A stretch of DNA of 63,035 bases from Sulfurospirillum sp. Its GTDB lineage: Bacteria; Campylobacterota; Campylobacteria; Campylobacterales; Sulfurospirillaceae. The notes under the pieces are model-generated. The model was not told where the DNA came from. It did not search any database and saw only the letters and a program-made list of their open reading frames with translations. This document shows positions 1-39,586 of this stretch, piece by piece (the stretch's first letter is position 1; each line of letters begins with the position of its first letter). Position numbers and translations under genes: made by a program. The stretch lies in the NCBI GenBank assembly GCA_045047115.1, contig JASFYR010000011.1:1-63035 (forward strand), given 5' to 3'.

Positions 1-160
1 AACATTCTATGCAAAGCATAAGCTTTAGTGAGAGGAATTTAACTTGGGCTTTGCCTAAGTTAAAGGAGACATCAATATGAAACATTCTATGCAAAGCATT
101 AGCTTTAGTGAGAGAAATTTATTGGGGGCTCTGCTCCCAATAAAGGAGACAATTAAATGA
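1..160 (+). repeat. Two tandem 80 bp copies of an RBS-associated two-hairpin repeat element, upstream of secY (first copy truncated by window edge)
   Basis: 1-80 and 81-160 are near-identical (period exactly 80). Each has TATGC-AAA-GCAT(A/T), the linker AGCTTTAGTGAGA(G/A)GAA-type sequence, a ~12 bp hairpin and AAAGGAGACA..ATGA. Confidence 0.9.
77..160 (+). CDS. Putative 27 aa mini-ORF encoded by the repeat (MKHSMQSISFSERNLLGALLPIKETIK)
   Basis: AAGGAG at 63-68 precedes ATG 77; stop TGA 158-160 overlaps the secY ATG (ATGA). Translation not demonstrated. Confidence 0.45.
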   Translation: MKHSMQSISFSERNLLGALLPIKETIK

Positions 161-1419
161 GTAAAGATTTAACAAGAAAGATTTTGATTACCTTAGGTTT
201 CATCTTTGCATACAGGATATTGGCTTATGTGCCGGTACCTGGTGTAAATTTAGATGTTGTAAAAGAGTTTTTTGACTCAAACAGTTCAAATGCACTGGGC
301 ATGTTCAATATGTTTAGTGGAAATGCTGCAAAAAGACTGAGTATAATTTCACTCGGAATTATGCCTTATATCACTGCTTCAATTGTTATGGAACTTTTAG
401 CTGCAACATTCCCGACTCTTGGAAAAATGAAAAAAGAGAGAGACGGAATGACAAAGTATATGCAAATCATCCGTTATGCAACGATTGGTATCACTATAAT
501 CCAAGCCGTTGGTGTATCTATGGGTCTTGGAAGTTTGACAGGTCGTGGTGGCGAGAGTGCTGTTATGATTGATAAAACAACTTTTATGGCAATAGCTGCT
601 GCATCCATGCTGACAGGAACCATGCTTCTTATGTGGATTGGTGAACAAATCACTCAAAGAGGCATAGGAAATGGTATCAGCTTGATTATCTTCGCGGGTA
701 TTGTTTCAGGCATACCTCATGCGATAGGCGGAACTATAAACCTTGTAAACACAGGTGAGCTTAACTTTTTAGTTGTCATTGCCATACTGGTGGTGATACT
801 TGTGACTGTGGGGGTTATCATCTATGTAGAGATGGGTGAGAGAAGAGTGCCGATATCGTATTCGAGAAAAGTCATGATGCAAAATCAACATAAGAGAATC
901 ATGAACTATGTGCCTATAAAAGTGAACTTAAGCGGTGTGATTCCACCTATTTTTGCGAGTGCAATTTTGATGTTTCCATCAACTCTGCTTCAGGCAAGTA
1001 CAAATCCTATAGTGTTGAGTATAAAGGATTTTCTGAGTCCTGGCAGTTATGTATTTAATATTTTGACATTTTTATTTGTTATATTCTTTTCGTATTTTTA
1101 TGCATCAATTGTATTTAATGCAAAAGACATTTCAGAAAATTTAAAAAAACAAGGCGGATTTATACCTGGAGTACGACCTGGGATTCATACGGCCGATTTC
1201 TTAAATGATGTTGCAAGTCGTTTGACATTTTGGGGAGCAATCTACCTAGGACTGATTTCAACACTTCCTTGGGTTTTAGTAAAATTTATGGGAGTTCCTT
1301 TCTATTTTGGAGGAACGGCAGTTTTGATTGTTGTTCAAGTTGCACTAGATACTATGAGAAAGATAGAAGCTCAGATATATATGAGCAAATATGAAACTTT
1401 GAGTGCAGTAGGTTTATAA
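157..1419 (+). CDS. secY: Preprotein translocase subunit SecY
   Basis: Motifs LGIMPYITASI, GIGNGISLIIFAGI, IPGVRPG, FGGTAVLIVV; position before map-infA. Confidence 0.98.
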   Translation: MSKDLTRKILITLGFIFAYRILAYVPVPGVNLDVVKEFFDSNSSNALGMFNMFSGNAAKRLSIISLGIMPYITASIVMELLAATFPTLGKMKKERDGMTKYMQIIRYATIGITIIQAVGVSMGLGSLTGRGGESAVMIDKTTFMAIAAASMLTGTMLLMWIGEQITQRGIGNGISLIIFAGIVSGIPHAIGGTINLVNTGELNFLVVIAILVVILVTVGVIIYVEMGERRVPISYSRKVMMQNQHKRIMNYVPIKVNLSGVIPPIFASAILMFPSTLLQASTNPIVLSIKDFLSPGSYVFNILTFLFVIFFSYFYASIVFNAKDISENLKKQGGFIPGVRPGIHTADFLNDVASRLTFWGAIYLGLISTLPWVLVKFMGVPFYFGGTAVLIVVQVALDTMRKIEAQIYMSKYETLSAVGL

Positions 1420-2177
1420 TGGCTATAGCCCTTAAGAGCCAAAAAGATATACAAAAATTGTCTGTGGCAAATAAGATTGTAGCTAAAACACTAAACTACT
1501 TAGAAAAAGAAGTTCACCCGGGTATGTCTCTTTTAGAGATAAATGCTTTGGGTGAAGATTTTATACTAACTCACGGTGCAACCCCTGCTTTTAAAGGACT
1601 TTATGGATTTCCAGCTGGAGTTTGTACATCAGTAAACGAAGTTATAATTCATGGTATTCCAACTGAATATAAAATAAAAGAGGGTGACATACTGGGACTT
1701 GATATCGGAAGCAAGATAGATGGGTGGTATGGTGATGCTGCAATTACCATGGGAATCGGTGATATAACAAAAGAAGATGAAGAACTGATAGCCTGTTCCA
1801 AAGATGCACTTTATCATGCGATTAATTTTATAAAAGCCGGTATGCGATTTAAAGAACTTAGTTTTGAGCTTGAAAATTTTATACTCTCAAGAGGTTTCGT
1901 CCCTCTTAGAAGTTTTTGTGGACATGGAATAGGTAAAAAACCTCATGAAGAGCCGGAAATTCCAAACTATTTAGAAGGAAATAATCCAAAACAGGGTCCA
2001 AAGATAAAAAATGGTATGGTCTTTTGTTTGGAGCCTATGATATGCCAAAAAGAGAGCGAAGCAAAAATCTTGGATGATAAGTGGTCGGTAGTCTCAGGCG
2101 ACGGGCTAAGAGGAAGCCACTATGAGCACTGTGTGGCGATAATAAATAACAGAGCGGAAATACTCTCAGTAGAGTAG
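1419..2177 (+). CDS. map: Type I methionine aminopeptidase
   Basis: SVNEVIIHGIP, DG..GD, GHGIG..HEEP, EPM and HYEH metal-site motifs; secY-map-infA order. Confidence 0.97.
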   Translation: MAIALKSQKDIQKLSVANKIVAKTLNYLEKEVHPGMSLLEINALGEDFILTHGATPAFKGLYGFPAGVCTSVNEVIIHGIPTEYKIKEGDILGLDIGSKIDGWYGDAAITMGIGDITKEDEELIACSKDALYHAINFIKAGMRFKELSFELENFILSRGFVPLRSFCGHGIGKKPHEEPEIPNYLEGNNPKQGPKIKNGMVFCLEPMICQKESEAKILDDKWSVVSGDGLRGSHYEHCVAIINNRAEILSVE

Positions 2178-2195
2178 CGGCAAATCAAAGGCATA

Positions 2196-2366
2196 CAGAG
2201 CACCGGCCCGTGCTTTAGTAGAGCGTGAATTGACCAGAAATTCACTTTCTGGTTAAGATGACAGTTAAACAAAGTAATACGACCGCAAGGTTGTGCTTTA
2301 GTAGCGTGTGAATTGTTTAGGAATTCACTTCCTAAACAAGATGACAGTTAAACAGGAGAATATATG
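2196..2366 (+). repeat. Two tandem 83 bp structured units in the infA leader, distantly related to the 80 bp element
   Basis: GTGCTTTAGTAG (2210, 2293), GTGAATTG (2225, 2308) and GATGACAGTTAAACA (2257, 2340) repeat with period 83. The 11 bp stems differ in sequence but both pair and share the loop TTCAC. Confidence 0.85.
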
Positions 2367-2582
2367 GCGAAAGCAGATGTGATAGAGATAGACGGTAAAG
2401 TTATAGAGGCATTGCCAAACGCAACTTTTAAAGTTGAAGTTCAGAACAACCATGTGATTTTATGTCACATAGCTGGAAAGATGAGGATGCATTATATAAA
2501 GATAATGCCAGGAGACAAAGTTAAGGTAGAATTGACACCTTATAGCTTGGACAAAGGTAGAATTACATACCGATATAAGTAA
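2364..2582 (+). CDS. infA: Translation initiation factor IF-1
   Basis: 72 aa; [33 protein letters not shown]. Confidence 0.98.
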
Positions 2583-2601
2583 ATTATTAGCTTAATTTGG
2601 G

Positions 2602-2745
2602 TATAATTCATACCTTTTGTAAAACTGTGTGAAGAAGAATTGAAAAAAAACCACTATTTTTTCAATTGTTGGTCTAGTAAAACATCGCTAAACCTGTGAC
2701 AGTTTACTTGGTGATAGAGTGGAAAAAATAGACAAAGGCTGAAAA
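2602..2745 (+). promoter_or_regulatory. Promoter (-10 TATAAT) and structured 5' leader of the rpmJ-rpsM-rpsK-rpsD-rpoA-rplQ operon
   Basis: TATAAT 2602-2607; 11 bp stem 2638-2648/2657-2667; further helices 2672-2733. Confidence 0.55.
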
Positions 2746-2859
2746 ATGAAAGTACGACCTTCTGTAAAGAAGATGTGCGATAAATGCAAAGTGATCAAAC
2801 GAAAAGGTGTCGTTAGAGTCATTTGTGTAAATCCAAAACATAAACAGAGACAAGGATAA
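2746..2859 (+). CDS. rpmJ: 50S ribosomal protein L36 (missed by ORF track)
   Basis: Manual translation [37 protein letters not shown], 37 aa, Zn-ribbon form. Confidence 0.98.
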
Positions 2860-2861
2860 CC

Positions 2862-3230
2862 ATGGCAAGAATTGCAGGTGTAGACCTTCCAAACAAAAAA
2901 AGAGTAGAGTATGCTTTGACATATATCTACGGTGTAGGCTTGACCAGCTCTAGAGCGATATTAAATGCAACAGGCATTTCTTATGATAAAAGAGCAAGTG
3001 AGCTGAATGAAGAAGAGATAGCTTCTATCCGTAATGAATTACAAAAAAACTATGCAGTTGAGGGTGATTTAAGAAAAGATGTCGCTATGAATATAAAAGC
3101 TTTGATGGATATGGGAAGCTATAGAGGTCTAAGACATAGACGAGGACTTCCTGTTAGAGGTCAAAAAACAAAAACTAATGCGCGTACACGAAAAGGTAAG
3201 AAAAGAACCGTCGGCGCAAAAGCTAAATAG
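2862..3230 (+). CDS. rpsM: 30S ribosomal protein S13
   Basis: [25 protein letters not shown]. Confidence 0.98.
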
Positions 3231-3248
3231 AGTCTCAAAGGGAAACAG

Positions 3249-3641
3249 ATGGCAAAAAGAAAAGTAGCTAGAAAAAAAGTCGTTAAGAAAAATATTGCAA
3301 AAGGTATAGTTTTTATATCAGCAACATTCAATAACACTGTAGTGACTGTAACTGATGAGATGGGAAATGTTATTGCGTGGAGTAGTGCTGGTAGCCTTGG
3401 TTTTAAAGGCAGCAAAAAGTCAACTCCATATGCAGCTCAACAAGCAGTTGATGATGCGTTGGCAAAAGCAAAAGAACATGGAATCAAAGAGCTTGGTATA
3501 AAAGTTCAAGGTCCTGGTAGCGGTCGTGAAACTGCAGTCAAAAGTGTAGGTGCTTATGAGGGTATAAGAGTAACTTTTCTAAAAGATATAACTCCACTAC
3601 CACATAATGGTTGTAGGCCTCCAAAAAGAAGAAGAGTTTAA
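3249..3641 (+). CDS. rpsK: 30S ribosomal protein S11
   Basis: [29 protein letters not shown]. Confidence 0.98.
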
Positions 3642-3695
3642 TTCTGAAACAGAGTTATCTCAAAGTATTAATTATGTATAAAATTGGGAGAAAAG

Positions 3696-4322
3696 ATGGC
3701 AAGATATAGAGGACCAGTTGAAAAGCTTGAGAGAAGATTAGGTGTGAGCCTGGCTCTTAAAGGTGAGAGAAGACTTGCTGGCAAAAGTGCTCTTGATAAG
3801 AGACCTTATGCACCTGGACAACACGGTCAAAGAAGAACAAAAATCAGTGAATATGGATTGCAGTTAAGAGAGAAGCAAAAAGCTAAATTTATGTATGGTG
3901 TTTCTGAAAAACAGTTTAGAAGACTATTTTCAGATGCAAACAAATCAGAAGGAAATACAGGTACAAATCTTATCCTTTTGATAGAGAGAAGACTCGATAA
4001 TGTTGCATATCGTATGGGTTTTGCAACAACTAGAAGATTTGCTCGTCAGTTAGTAACGCACGGACACTTATTGGTAAACGGTAAAAAAGTTGACATTCCT
4101 TCATACAGAGTAAAAGCCGGAGATAAATTGGAGATTAGAGAGAAATCAAAAAACAATCCACAAATTGTGCGTGCACTTGAACTGACTGCACAAACAGGAA
4201 TTGTTCCGTGGGTTGACATAGATACAAACAAAGCTTTTGGAATTTTTACAAGAATTCCTGACCGTGAAGAAGTAGTAATACCGATTGAAGAGAGATTAAT
4301 CGTTGAGCTATACTCTAAATAA
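3696..4322 (+). CDS. rpsD: 30S ribosomal protein S4
   Basis: MARYRGP start (ATG 3696 after GGGAG), QLREKQK, IVELYSK. Confidence 0.98.
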
Positions 4323-4338
4323 GTAAGTAGGTAGCATT

Positions 4339-5352
4339 ATGAATAGTATAAAAACATCAGCATATATGCCAACAGAGATTGAAGTAGAAAACATCTCTAA
4401 AAATAAGATTAAAGTGATAGCATATCCATTTGAATCAGGTTTTGGAGTGACTTTGGCTCATCCCCTGAGAAGACTTCTGTTTAACTCAACTGTGGGATTT
4501 GCACCAATTGCCGTAAGAATTGAGGGAGTTACTCACGAATTTGACAGTATAAGAGGCATGTTGGAAGATGTCGCACTTTTTATCATAAATCTAAAAAATA
4601 TCCGCTTTAAAATCCTGGGTGATGAGGATAGAGTTATTTTAAACTACTCATTTAGCGGACCAAAAGAGATAAAAGGAAGTGATCTTAATAACGATCAAGT
4701 TGAGATTGTTACACCTGAAAACCACTTTTGTACTATAAATGAAGATGCGGAACTTAACTTTTCAGTTATAGTTGAAAAAGGCATAGGATATGTTCCTAGC
4801 GAAAATATCAGAGAAGATTTGGATGCGGATTATATCGCATTGGATGGTTTTTTTACACCTGTTAAAAAAGCTGTATATGATATAGAAAATGTACTTGTAG
4901 AAGATAATCCGAATTTTGAAAAGGTTATTTTCACAGTTGAAACTGATGGGCTTATTCCACCGTTGACTGCTTTTAAAAACTCTTTGGAAGCTATGTATTC
5001 ACAAATGTCTGTATTTAACGGTTTACTCGAAATCGAAGTAGGAAGCAATGATGAGAGTGAAATTGTCAGCGTTGAGTTTGGTAAGCTTTTACAAAGCATT
5101 GATGATCTAAATCTAAGTGCTCGTAGTTTTAACTGTTTGGATAGAGCTTCAATCAAGTATATCGGTGAATTAGCACTGATGGATGAAACCGAATTGAAAA
5201 ACTTAAAAAATCTTGGAAAAAAATCTCTTGAAGAGATAAGACAAGTGATGGAAGATCTGGAATTTCCTATAGGTTTTGAGTTCGAAGACGGAACAAAAGA
5301 TGTGCTAAGAGAAAAAATTCAAGATTTAAAATCTGAAACGAATGAGGGCTAA
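4339..5352 (+). CDS. rpoA: RNA polymerase subunit alpha
   Basis: [35 protein letters not shown]. Confidence 0.98.
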
Positions 5353-5354
5353 AA

Positions 5355-5705
5355 ATGAGACATAAGCATGGATATAGAAAGCTAGGTCGTACTTCTACAC
5401 ACAGAGGCGCGCTTCTTAAAAACCTGGCAATCGCAATTATAAAATATGAAAAAATTGAGACAACTCTACCTAAAGCAAAAGAGCTTAGGGGATTTATAGA
5501 GAAGTTAATCACAAGAGCAGGAAAAGGTGATTTTAATGCTCATAGAGCTGTATTTGCAGCTTTACAAGACAAAGAGTGTACTAAAAAACTAGTTGAAGAA
5601 ATAGCACCAAAGTATGTTGAAAGAAATGGTGGCTATACAAGAATAATCAAAACAAGAAATAGAAGAGGCGACGCTGCTTCTATGGCTTTTCTAGAATTAG
5701 TATAA
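5355..5705 (+). CDS. rplQ: 50S ribosomal protein L17
   Basis: [26 protein letters not shown]. Confidence 0.98.
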
Positions 5706-5714
5706 TTTTAATCA

Positions 5715-5737
5715 GGAGACTGTTATACGCAGTCTCC
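5715..5737. terminator. Hairpin between convergent rplQ and suhB
   Basis: GGAGACTG..CAGTCTCC stem; no strong U-tract. Confidence 0.5.
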
Positions 5738-5751
5738 AAACTTCAAAAACT

Positions 5752-6525
5752 TTAATTTTCTATATAGGATAATAACTCTTCGTGTATTTTACCGTTGGTT
5801 GCAACGATGCATCTGTCATTAAACATATCATATGGTAGATTGTAGCTATTTGTTACTTTGCCTCCAGCCTCTTCTAGAATTAGTATTCCAGCACTTACAT
5901 CCCAAGATTTTAGATTTATCTCATAATATCCCTCATAAATACCATTTGCCACCATGCAAAGGTCAATAGAGGCACTTCCTAGTCTTCTGATATCCTGGCA
6001 CTTTGGTAATATCATCTTTAGCTTTTTAATCACCCAGTTTAAATCATCTCTATTTGAGGCACTTGTATATGGAAAACCGGTTGATATAAGTGATGTTTGA
6101 AAATTTGCATCATTGCTTACTTCTAGTAATTTTCCATTTAAGTATGATCCGTTTCCCGCAATTGCAGTATAAAGCTCATTCAATATAGGGTTGTAAACGA
6201 TACCAATATATGCTTTTTTATTCTTATAAACACCAATAGAGATGGCGCAATGAGGTATTTTGTTCACAAAATTTGTAGTTCCGTCTATCGGGTCGATTAT
6301 TATTGAATTGCCAAATTCTATTTTACTGTTGTCTGACTCTTCGGCAATTATATTGTACTCCTCAAAAGAGGATGAAAGTTTGTCTATCAAAAATTTCTCT
6401 ATGCCTTTGTCATACTGTGTTACCAAGTCTTTTTTGCCTTTGAATTCGATAGATTTTTTATTATTATAACCCTTTTTGAAAATTACACCAGCTTCTTTAA
6501 CTATATCTATGAGTTTATCTATCAT
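5752..6525 (-). CDS. suhB: Inositol monophosphatase family protein
   Basis: DLVT..D, IIDPIDGTTNF, IRRLGSA, WDVSAG. Likely start ATG 6525; the extra 54 codons in the ORF track lie inside the inserted element. Confidence 0.88.
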   Translation of the reverse strand: MIDKLIDIVKEAGVIFKKGYNNKKSIEFKGKKDLVTQYDKGIEKFLIDKLSSSFEEYNIIAEESDNSKIEFGNSIIIDPIDGTTNFVNKIPHCAISIGVYKNKKAYIGIVYNPILNELYTAIAGNGSYLNGKLLEVSNDANFQTSLISTGFPYTSASNRDDLNWVIKKLKMILPKCQDIRRLGSASIDLCMVANGIYEGYYEINLKSWDVSAGILILEEAGGKVTNSYNLPYDMFNDRCIVATNGKIHEELLSYIEN

Positions 6526-6912: not shown

Positions 6913-7491
6913 ATGAAAAAAAAGATTTTACTGATTTCAGTAGCATTAACGATATCAAATTTTGCTTATGCAAGTAATATAAATATAAATCGTAATGGCG
7001 CCAGCGGAAACACTGACGAAGTGCAAATAGCCAATATAGCAACTCAAAACAATGAGCTGAGCCAAGCAAGCATGTTGCAACTCTCCCAAGATATTGGCAC
7101 TATGGCTGATAGAATTAACCAAATGGCTGATAGAATTAACCAAATGGCAGATAAAATTGTCAAAACCCAGGAGATACAGAGTGAAAACTTGCAAGTAACC
7201 CAAGGAAATATATTAAAAGCACAAAAATCTATATCAAATGTTTTGCAAAATATAAATAACCCTCAGGCAAGAAGTGAGTTGCAAGCAGCTCAAGCAAATT
7301 TAGAAAAAGCAATATCTGTAAAAAATTCAAAAAATGTAACAAACATAACCAGGCCAAGCAATACGGAAAATAGTAATATGAGTGGCATGGATAATAGTAT
7401 GGGCGGTATGAGTGATGGTATGGGCGGCGGCATGGGCGGTGGAGGAGCAGGCGGTGGAGGAGCAGGCGGTGGAGGAGCAGGCGGCTTTTAG
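6913..7491 (+). CDS. Secreted hypothetical protein with MADRINQ heptad repeats and Met/Gly-rich tail
   Basis: AAGGAG RBS; signal peptide ending AYA; 21 bp repeats 7102-7164; 15 bp repeats 7435-7479. Confidence 0.75.
   Translation: MKKKILLISVALTISNFAYASNININRNGASGNTDEVQIANIATQNNELSQASMLQLSQDIGTMADRINQMADRINQMADKIVKTQEIQSENLQVTQGNILKAQKSISNVLQNINNPQARSELQAAQANLEKAISVKNSKNVTNITRPSNTENSNMSGMDNSMGGMSDGMGGGMGGGGAGGGGAGGGGAGGF
7102..7164 (+). repeat. In-frame 21 bp tandem repeat (2 exact + 1 degenerate)
   Basis: ATGGCTGATAGAATTAACCAA x2 then ATGGCAGATAAAATTGTCAAA. Confidence 0.9.
7435..7479 (+). repeat. In-frame 15 bp tandem repeat x3 (GGGGA)
   Basis: GGCGGTGGAGGAGCA x3. Confidence 0.9.
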
Positions 7492-26872: not shown

Positions 26873-27966
26873 CTTTAGACCAATATAAAAATGCGATAGA
26901 ACAGAGTAATATAGTTTCTAAAACAGATATAAACGGTATAATAACTTTTGTAAATGATGAGTTTTGTAAGATTTTTGAATACACAAGAGAGGAGCTCATA
27001 GGTAAAAATCATAATATCGTTAGACATCCTGATGTCCCAAAAGAGATATTTAAGAGTCTATGGGATACGATTTTGGCAAAAAAGACATATAAAGCGATGG
27101 TGAAAAACCTCTCAAAATACGGCAAAACTCTCTATGTAAATACAACCGTGATACCTATCTTAGATAAAAGAGGAGAAATAGAAGAGTTTATCGCCATAAG
27201 ATACGATATGACTGAGAGTGTAGAGTTGGCACGCCAAATGCAGGAAAAAGACAGATTTCTTTTTCAACAGTCCAGGCTTGCTGCAATGGGAGAGATGATA
27301 GGAAATATCGCACATCAATGGCGTCAGCCTCTAAATGAGCTAGGTATCACTGTTTATCAAATGAAAAAATTTTTTTTATCTGATAAAAGAGAGAAAGAAT
27401 TTTTGCAGAGTTATGATCACTCTAAAGATGTGATAAAAAAAATGTCGAGCACTATAGAGGATTTTAGGAATTTTTTTAATCCGAATAAACAAAAAGAGAT
27501 ATTTCTTTTAAGAGATGCGATTGATGAGCTTTTAAGGATGATGCAAGGAAGTATACAGAGGCACTCTTTGCATATAGAGGCAGAAAACAAGAAAAAGATT
27601 TATATATATGGGTTTTTTAATGAATTTAATCAAGTGATGTTAAATCTTATAAATAACTCAAAAGATGCTTTTAATCAAAGAAAAATTAAAAAAAGAGAGA
27701 TTAAAATTGCAGTTGATATAGATGAAAAGCAAAATGCAGTTATCATATACAGTGATAATGCTAAAGGTATAGATGAAAATATAATAGATAAGATTTTTGA
27801 TCCATATTTTACAACCAAACATTCAAGTGAGGGGACAGGATTGGGATTATACATGAGTGAAATGATAATTCAAAAAAGTATGAGCGGAAGTATAAAAGCC
27901 TATAATAACAAAAATGGTGCAACATTTGAGATAAAGATACCTGCACTAAAGGAGACAGTAAAATGA
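26869..27966 (+). CDS. Cytoplasmic PAS-domain sensor histidine kinase
   Basis: PAS (SKTD..G.ITFVN..F, HNIVRHPD), H-box IAHQWRQPL, DPYFTTK, GTGLGL. ATG 26869 overlaps the upstream stop. Confidence 0.93.
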   Translation: MTLDQYKNAIEQSNIVSKTDINGIITFVNDEFCKIFEYTREELIGKNHNIVRHPDVPKEIFKSLWDTILAKKTYKAMVKNLSKYGKTLYVNTTVIPILDKRGEIEEFIAIRYDMTESVELARQMQEKDRFLFQQSRLAAMGEMIGNIAHQWRQPLNELGITVYQMKKFFLSDKREKEFLQSYDHSKDVIKKMSSTIEDFRNFFNPNKQKEIFLLRDAIDELLRMMQGSIQRHSLHIEAENKKKIYIYGFFNEFNQVMLNLINNSKDAFNQRKIKKREIKIAVDIDEKQNAVIIYSDNAKGIDENIIDKIFDPYFTTKHSSEGTGLGLYMSEMIIQKSMSGSIKAYNNKNGATFEIKIPALKETVK

Positions 27967-28046
27967 AATATTCTATGCGAAGCATAAGCAATAGTCACGA
28001 GGAATTTAACTTGGGCTTTGCTCAAGTCAAAGGAGACAATAAAATG
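27963..28046 (+). repeat. Single 81 bp copy of the RBS-associated two-hairpin element between kinase and regulator
   Basis: ATGAAATATTCTATGCGAAGCATAAGC..GAGGAATTTAACTTGGGCTTTGCTCAAGTCAAAGGAGACAATAAAATG closely matches 1-80. Confidence 0.9.
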
Positions 28047-28715
28047 AATAATTTAAAAACACTTACGGTTTTATTTGTAGAAGATGAAAGCAATATAAGA
28101 ACAGCGCTGAAAAAAGCTATAAGTGATGAATTTAAAAACTTTATTTTGGCGAGAGACGGTAGTGAGGGTTTGAAAAAATTTCAAAAGTATAAGCCTGATA
28201 TCGTCATAACTGATATAATGATGCCTATAATTGATGGTTTGGAAATGTCAAGGGAGATTAAGAAGATTTCACGGGATACGCCAATTGTGGTATTGAGTGC
28301 TTTTGATGAAAAAGAGAGACTCATGAGTGCCATAAATATAGGTATAGATAAGTATTTGATGAAGCCCATTGACGCAGATGAGCTTTTGAGTACGCTTAAA
28401 TATATTTCAAAAGATATGCTTTCTCTCGGTGATACAATTGACCTTGGAAATGGATATATTTTTGATAAAATTGCAAGAGTTTTGATTAAGGATGGCAAGA
28501 CCATACCTCTTACTAAAAAAGAACTTCTCTTTATATCAATTTTGGTAAAAAATCTTGGTGCCTATGTGCTTCATGAAGAGTTAAAAAAGTATGTATGGAC
28601 AAATAAAAATGTCAGTGATGCAGCCATCAGAACATTTGTAAAAAGAGTCAGAGGAAAAACTGATAAAAACTTTATAGAAAATATTCCGGGGCTTGGATAC
28701 AAAATTAGTCTGTAA
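28044..28715 (+). CDS. OmpR-family response regulator
   Basis: FVEDE, ITDIMMP..DG, KP, winged-helix C-terminus (RTFVKRVR, GLGYK). The 27 upstream in-frame codons are repeat-derived. Confidence 0.93.
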   Translation: MNNLKTLTVLFVEDESNIRTALKKAISDEFKNFILARDGSEGLKKFQKYKPDIVITDIMMPIIDGLEMSREIKKISRDTPIVVLSAFDEKERLMSAINIGIDKYLMKPIDADELLSTLKYISKDMLSLGDTIDLGNGYIFDKIARVLIKDGKTIPLTKKELLFISILVKNLGAYVLHEELKKYVWTNKNVSDAAIRTFVKRVRGKTDKNFIENIPGLGYKISL

Positions 28716-39398: not shown

Positions 39399-39586
39399 TA
39401 AACACTCTGCATAAAGTGCAAGCACAAGTTCGAGGAATTTTTGATGGGCTTTCAAGGAAGCATTGCTAACGCGACCGCATTTGCTTGCTTTGCCCCGATA
39501 AGATGTAAACACTCTGCATAAAGTGCAAGCTTTAGTGAGAGGAATTTTTGATGGGCTTTGCCCATAAAAAAGGAGAAATTAAATGA
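39399..39586 (+). repeat. Two copies of the RBS-associated two-hairpin element in the rplM leader (first copy carries a 39 nt insert)
   Basis: TAAACACTCTGCATAAAGTGCAAGC at 39399 and 39506, and GAGGAATTTTTGATGGGCTTT in both. The second has AGCTTTAGTGAGAGGAATTT identical to position 21-40. Confidence 0.88.

Follow-up and report, generated by a model that had tools for sequence, protein, structure and literature searches.

A dispersed two-hairpin repeat at start codons in Sulfurospirillum whose mini-ORFs probably relay ribosomes to secY and other genes

Mycobacterial interspersed repetitive units (MIRUs) reportedly go back to work by Supply et al. from 1997. Start-codon insertion of the MIRU type is known mainly from mycobacteria and has been argued from anatomy. 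In the spc operon, rplO usually precedes secY, and ATGA overlaps mediate translational coupling. According to the accessible text of PMC12548453, MIRUs, which seem to be mobile, insert at start codons and carry an internal ORF coupled at -4 spacing, which likely minimizes the effect on the gene. The accessible parts of two further papers describe repeats of 40 to 100 bp with overlapping ORFs, some 40 to 50 copies per genome, and tetranucleotide repeats at filled sites (PMC3184786), as well as tandem units of 77 bp (PMC4213456). Neisseria REP2 and Borrelia IR-A consist of two stem-loops with a promoter, a ribosome-binding site (RBS), and an ATG (PMC3184786, in part), and REPs have been reported in Sulfurovum (PMC3733652, in part).

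In this study, we analyzed a 63,035-nucleotide stretch of Sulfurospirillum sp. DNA, referred to as the window, which begins at the edge of contig C11 with repeat units directly ahead of secY. The family to which these units belong resembles MIRUs in being a dispersed repeat of about 80 nt with tens of copies (85 matches, including partial ones) and tandem arrays, in its start-codon insertions with empty and filled sites, and in an internal ORF at -4 spacing. The accessible portions of PMC12548453, PMC3184786, and PMC4213456 name no mobilizer for MIRUs, and none was found for the present repeat either. Where MIRU sites show a tetranucleotide repeat, clean pairs of filled and empty sites here show ATGA on both sides, with a longer element-like tail in some left flanks (see below). 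The present repeat differs from MIRUs, with which it was compared by description rather than by sequence, in that it is AT-rich and belongs to another phylum, has a fixed two-hairpin anatomy with a conserved core, lacks a mini-ORF in most copies, and includes a subtype without a Shine-Dalgarno sequence (SD) that enters RNase P RNA. With REP2 and IR-A it shares a dispersed position directly upstream of genes, two stem-loops, an RBS, and an ATG. Unlike them, it has no shared regulon, lies mostly between co-directional genes, and forms relay ORFs; with regard to a built-in promoter, no sigma-70-like match was found at positions 1 to 160 by a scan that does not model the promoters of this phylum. 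By analogy, the family can be said to act like a MIRU and to be built like Neisseria REP2.

The GTAG and CGTC REPs and the RAYT and TIRYT systems are likewise short palindromic intergenic repeats with arrays and covarying stems, and one subtype of the present family ends in GGGGACA(G), comparable to the TIRYT motif GGGGWSAS (PMC3733652, in part). In contrast to the GTAG and CGTC REPs, no inverted dimers and no enrichment at gene ends were seen, and copies lie in sense orientation before genes; the RAYT and TIRYT systems differ in their association with Y1 transposases, near which a present copy is rare. BoxC and intrastrand triplexes share with the repeat a pyrimidine tract, a purine tract, and a mirrored purine tract in one strand (PMC4666352, in part), whereas the present tracts are short, show a strand bias, and are linked to start codons. 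A literature search, mostly of openly readable papers, returned no description of this repeat family. It is apparently an unnamed family of Campylobacterota, which may overlap with one of the REP families listed in PMC3733652.

Units before secY and the repeat family

The secY gene, the identity of which is supported by Pfam, is preceded by a tandem repeat with a period of 80, 1.9 copies, and 83% matches according to TRF. The 27-codon ORF of unit 2 reads MKHSMQSISFSERNLLGALLPIKETIK, and its TGA at 158 to 160 overlaps the secY ATG at 157; the frame of unit 1, open at its 5' end, reads HSMQSISFSERNLTWALPKLKETSI, and its TGA at 78 to 80 overlaps the ATG at 77. The final two A's of each 12-bp hairpin are the first two of AAGGAG, and the adjacent GGAG is unpaired in the predicted fold. 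The sequence-only reading had described both overlaps, and these proved exact; the AAGGAG that it placed before each next start, with hairpin 2 abutting, was found as well. It had also pointed upstream for the rplO stop and further units. At the end of contig C29, the spc operon runs up to an L15-like ORF, followed by TAG, 3 nt, and an ATG that opens another full 27-codon unit. We take this ORF to be rplO from gene order in the spc operon and from its sequence; a Pfam L15/L27A search of this genome gave no match. The end of C29 and the start of the window overlap by 15 identical nt, and since the C29 unit differs from window unit 1 by one base, secY is probably preceded by at least three units.

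Table 1. Positions of repeat units, their parts, and associated genes in the window
Feature	Position	Strand	Remarks
Repeat unit 1	1..80	+	5' end cut by contig edge; frame 3-80, TGA overlaps ATG 77
Unit 1 hairpin 1	9..19	+	4 bp, AAA loop; sequence and family covariation
Unit 1 conserved box and core, GCTTTAGT..GAGGAATT	22..39	+	sequence conservation
Unit 1 hairpin 2	38..64	+	12 bp, abuts SD
Shine-Dalgarno AAGGAG of mini-ORF 2	63..68	+	
Unit 2 mini-ORF	77..160	+	27 codons; ATGA overlap at each end; no Pfam match
Unit 2 hairpin 1	89..99	+	sequence and family covariation
Unit 2 conserved box and core	102..119	+	
Unit 2 hairpin 2	118..144	+	12 bp; sequence unlike unit 1 yet fully paired
Shine-Dalgarno AAGGAG of secY	143..148	+	repeat-supplied
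secY	157..1419	+	Pfam
Two SD-less family copies between map and infA	2198..2352	+	infA has separate SD behind them
Family copy between two coupled genes	27963..28047	+	81-nt spacing; its ATG in frame with response regulator
Partial copy and full copy giving rplM its SD and ATG, without mini-ORF	39401..39585	+	

These units are members of a dispersed, structured repeat family of about 80 nt. An nhmmer profile built from 34 seed copies yielded 85 matches in this genome and 0 in the reversed genome; partial matches are counted, and some may be counted twice, since many contigs of the genome (G000) start or end inside copies, which marks assembly breaks. The array local to secY that had been proposed from the first lines of sequence is thereby ruled out.

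From 5' to 3', a unit is composed of hairpin 1, a conserved box and core (GCTTYAGT..GAGGAATT), hairpin 2, and the tail AAGG(A/G)GACA, with an ATG four or five bases 3' of it; the usual unit brings its own SD and ATG. In 68 loci plus the window unit, taken from 159 available units, hairpin 2 was 93% paired, compared to 71% in shuffles and 48 to 66% in slid registers, with G-U pairs present and compensatory changes at 10 of 12 pairs. Of 217 distinct sequences, 189 form a hairpin 1 of 4 bp or more, compared to 31 with the arms swapped. A conserved 5' inverted copy of the tail, as terminal inverted repeats of a MITE would require, was not seen in 69 aligned units, and closing pairing of the unit ends was confined to the RNase P copies. 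No terminators were called on either strand of the units. Readings as a K-turn, an anti-SD switch, or attC were dropped by eye, as the features were not conserved across subtypes. Homogenization within genomes was weak, the nearest neighbor coming from the same genome with a frequency of 0.39, compared to 0.27 expected.

Among the other copies in the window, the site at 27963 is filled in G000 and in one relative (G003) and empty in four other genomes (1/5 relatives filled, 4/5 empty). The two copies before rplM, one partial and one full, are separated by a different palindromic stretch (39454 to 39500), which recurs near position 65230 of contig C9 and is perhaps a second repeat family. The window also holds, at 6913 to 7491, a secreted-looking ORF of 192 amino acids that contains a 21-nt triple repeat and has a tail rich in Gly and Met.

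Distribution, orientation, and insertion sites

All 13 genomes of the genus contained the repeat pattern, with 5 to 57 matches each; the pattern was steady in three further genera of the family and rare elsewhere (1 control match over 41 genomes). Order-wide, 44 of 301 genomes carried it, with one control match. For a GTDB scan, about 520 stretches were estimated, with titles including Sulfurospirillum, Sulfurovum, Sulfurimonas, Arcobacter, and Hydrogenimonas; the first 80 matches listed were all from Campylobacterota, except for one unclassified record. The cultured strain Sulfurospirillum arcachonense DSM 9755 is among the carriers of the pattern. Two matches in a viral collection, both without the hairpin, were taken as chance.

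The downstream gene was in sense for 61 of 63 matches with a called neighbor (from crude gene calls), the upstream neighbor was co-directional in 52 of 55 resolved cases, compared to 533 of 632 ordinary starts, and adjacent copies were arranged head-to-tail except for one divergent pair. In four relatives, 67 distinct proteins encoded downstream of copies had mixed housekeeping functions, 15 of them without an NCBIfam match; the downstream genes include trpA, pyrH, rpoC, clpX, purE, hemN, aroC, polA, rplM, and atpE. At gathering score, Rfam gave no match in 20 repeat loci, and two chance-level matches were all that it returned for positions 1 to 6000 of the window. With no Rfam match and no common pathway among the 67 proteins, a riboswitch or known Rfam family was rejected.

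For 90 genes behind a terminal unit in four genomes (G008, G009, G010, and G012), 81 clear orthologues were identified in G000, where 38 of the sites were filled and 43 were empty. In clean filled/empty pairs (such as L059), ATGA occurs with the native upstream sequence on the left and with the element tail on the right. The left flank was element-like in 17 of 37 cases, compared to 128 of 1,679 ordinary starts, so that ATGA is probably not a clean target duplication; such flanks speak for recombination within the tail from SD to ATGA and against duplication of a fixed target. Behind terminal units, the start read ATGA in 121 of 132 cases, compared to 920 of 1,679 ordinary ATG starts. At the rplO-secY junction, the gap in other genera is -8 to +2 (16 of 18 genomes), and a spacer of 48 to 150 nt that ends in a hairpin and an SD is present in all 11 genomes of the same genus. 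A genome from another family (G036, L027) has an unrelated 45-nt spacer at this junction, in which a 13-codon ORF stops one base short of the secY ATG.

Open frame, hairpin 2, and competing explanations

Enough sequence context was available for 167 units, and 57 of these carry a 5'-edge ATG together with an SD or a coupled upstream stop. Unit spacing in this set was 83 nt in 25 cases and 80 nt in 19, which makes 83 nt no rarer than the 80-bp period that had been credited with regenerating the ATGA overlap. Forty-four of the 57 end in ATGA, a -4 overlap that is found in a minority of all copies, 7 stop 0 or 1 base before the ATG, 2 are in frame, and 4 stop early. The used frame was open to the SD in 53 of the 57 units, compared to 23 and 20 for the other two frames. 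When one unit per gene site was counted, the values were 26 of 28 compared to 8 and 10, and in an independent set of 101 further GTDB units they were 22 of 29 compared to 7 and 7, with exact ATGA in only 12 of 29 and a clearly early stop in 7. Total lengths of 3n+2 were observed in 78% of units, compared to 43% after shuffling of the four segment lengths (P = 5e-5, although relatedness among copies and genomes leads to overstated P values). No clear rule emerged for tandem periods that lack a junction ATG (5, 4, and 2 by frame).

An unbroken relay was present at 31 of 60 intra-operon junctions, compared to 13.7 expected after random insertion of 1 or 2 nt, and relays out of frame were found at 30 of 60 element junctions but at only 6 of 128 element-free spacers. 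An earlier control, which relied on in-frame starts and crude gene calls, did not discriminate (nearby start in 68 of 148 element-free and 8 of 13 element spacers). Some relay ORFs span three units and reach 81 to 82 codons. The other 29 junctions have no relay, 23 of them lacking an ATG or GTG near the upstream stop, which indicates that the relay is not obligatory. In seven of the 11 same-genus rplO-secY spacers (48 to 139 nt), an ATG or GTG overlaps the rplO stop, and the frames that open there end -1 to +4 from the secY ATG. In two secY orthologues (L007 and L008) the ORF stops in the hairpin loop, 22 nt before secY, and in two others (L012 and L013) a relay needs a TTG start. A conserved or leader peptide was rejected, as there was no Pfam match, three core frames are used, and the peptides vary freely. 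From these patterns we infer that selection acts on an open, coupled frame and not on the peptide. The proposed passage of ribosomes from unit to unit is well supported at the sequence level, because the frame from the 5' start is open in 26 of 28 sites, compared to 8 and 10, while the peptides are free to vary. As proposed by the sequence-only reading, the relay is thus backed by the kept frame, the 3n+2 compensation, and the secY spacers, but not as an obligatory step.

We consider it likely that a dispersed repeat with its own SD and ATG inserts at ATGA starts and that within operons its mini-ORF relays ribosomes to the downstream gene. The open 5'-edge frame, together with the family, its sense orientation, the filled and empty sites, and the covarying hairpins, is the directly observed part of this explanation. 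Insertion at the ATGA start codon would split a coupled junction, here that of rplO and secY, which abut or overlap in other genera, and a left-over or co-inserted ATG would open a frame through the unit. Selection would then keep variants of 3n+2 length (ATGA) or with a stop 0 to 2 nt before the ATG, and tandem duplication of such a unit would regenerate the chain; arrays that lose the junction ATG could be read through as one longer ORF. The mini-ORF, with a peptide that is likely irrelevant, would carry ribosomes over the insert and keep the downstream gene translationally coupled, while the hairpin beside the SD likely lowers, but does not block, independent initiation. Short-homology recombination in the SD-to-ATGA tail would be the preferred route of mobilization.

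The open frame could instead be an inherited by-product, copied from founder units that had an ATG, an open frame, and a 3n+2 length, with the unit's own SD doing all of the work. Among the 93 units that lack a 5' ATG, 63 also have an open ATGA frame, so part of the frame signal is indeed inherited; in addition, 29 of 55 units fall into two combinations of lengths, left tails often derive from the element, and half of the intra-operon junctions do without a relay. We nevertheless regard this account as unlikely, given that differing segment lengths compensate beyond permutation, that rplO-secY spacers of 48, 51, 118, and 139 nt, largely unrelated in sequence, keep the relay, that all three frames through the core are in use (34/11/3), and that read-through ORFs of several units end on the start. 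An account in which hairpin 2 silences the RBS and has to be melted by translation of the mini-ORF appears slightly less probable still. Opening of the -20 to +13 footprint is predicted to cost 9.5 kcal/mol at element starts and 12.9 kcal/mol at secY, compared to 7.1 kcal/mol at ordinary genes, and even the L007/L008 ORF gets to the hairpin loop. However, opening of the stretch from SD to ATG is predicted to cost only 2.2 kcal/mol, compared to 4.2 kcal/mol at ordinary genes, and 1.8 kcal/mol at secY, where GGAG and ATG are predicted to be unpaired (predictions at 37°C; 127 element starts and 200 sampled from 607 ordinary starts). A coupled 5' ATG is absent in 93 of 148 distinct units, including those before rpoC, polA, and rplM. 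Melting of hairpin 2 to expose the RBS, as proposed from the sequence of the locus, accordingly appears not to be needed. From the easy opening and the many units without a coupled ATG, hairpin 2 probably dampens independent initiation without silencing it. The repeat could also be a domesticated cis-acting RNA module, i.e., a 5' stabilizer or processing mark plus a strong SD, which tunes segmental operon expression, with the mini-ORF only making it tolerable. Strong covariation with G-U pairs, strict sense orientation, a core sequence conserved over several families, and a self-contained fold inside RNase P RNA are in its favor, but the downstream genes have no pathway in common and more than half of the sites are empty in a close relative; as a full explanation we hold it to be quite improbable, although it is compatible with the relay of ribosomes preferred here.

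Besides hundreds of natural start-codon insertions in another phylum, the family offers their empty counterparts, variants in length, and arrays of several units, and with them a measurable signature of selection for translational coupling over inserted DNA, secY included. It opens to testing the movement of such repeats, the mode of coupling (re-initiation or unfolding), and the way in which mobile DNA can rewrite the RBSs of essential genes. Annotation of carrier genomes should allow for false N-terminal extensions and small ORFs at repeat copies, and the repeat accounts for many of their assembly breaks.

SD-less subtype, mirror tracts, and mobilizer search

A second subtype, with the core TGAA and the tail AAGA, has no SD. 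Its units are found in stable RNAs or 14 to 38 nt ahead of a native start, infA in the window being one example. A full SD-less copy was found inside the RNase P RNA gene of this genome (contig C9, positions 162661 to 162736; L355), which Rfam recognizes with 251.9 bits; its position is presumably the tip of helix P12. Repeats are present in 5 of 30 RNase P loci from three genera (L355, L339, L342, L344, and L349), and four more were found with a wider unit set. These copies are predicted to fold as a branched extension forming a self-contained domain, and some of the carrier genera have almost no other copies. An origin of the family from RNase P RNA is not favored, as only these 5 of 30 loci carry the repeat and most RNase P genes of the same genus lack it. 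In G003, two RNase P RNA matches occur (contigs C25 and C1), one with a repeat at a different position. A further copy (L381, contig C24 of G301) lies directly before a sequence that is probably the 5' end of 16S rRNA.

In 335 distinct units, the varying positions of core and tail are mirror partners, with the combinations G/G in 253, T/A in 63, G/A in 14, and T/G in 4. This mirror covariation fits a purine-motif triplex code but may reflect hitch-hiking with subfamilies. On a more speculative view, which we rate as rather unlikely but worth stating, the repeat would be a SINE-like element that homes to start codons by an as yet undiscovered ATGA-specific mobilization reading a folded single strand, with mirror purine tracts covarying as G·G and T·A triplexes. 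Its SD-bearing form would rewrite RBSs genome-wide and its SD-less form would occupy leaders and RNase P RNA, a possible source, and the element would build bicistronic couplers.

No nuclease or transposase was recognized by eye among the neighbors of the copies in G000, and no reverse transcriptase was found in G000 or G003. The three Y1 transposases of G000 have no copies nearby, and over all Y1-transposase loci 1 of 32 has one repeat copy in its vicinity; an IS110 locus has none. The sole GIY-YIG nuclease match lies in a 609-codon frame, probably UvrC, and was set aside. At one locus of G000 (contig C20, 18120 to 19951; L001), an IS200/IS605-type tnpA precedes a TnpB-like frame that is apparently frameshifted. 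Two further loci (contig C3, 14312 to 14959, and contig C7, 19755 to 20543; L002 and L003) encode Y1 transposases that are TIRYT-like and have GGGGACAG and GGGGTCAG as inverted repeats, and GGGGACAG equals the tail of one repeat subtype.
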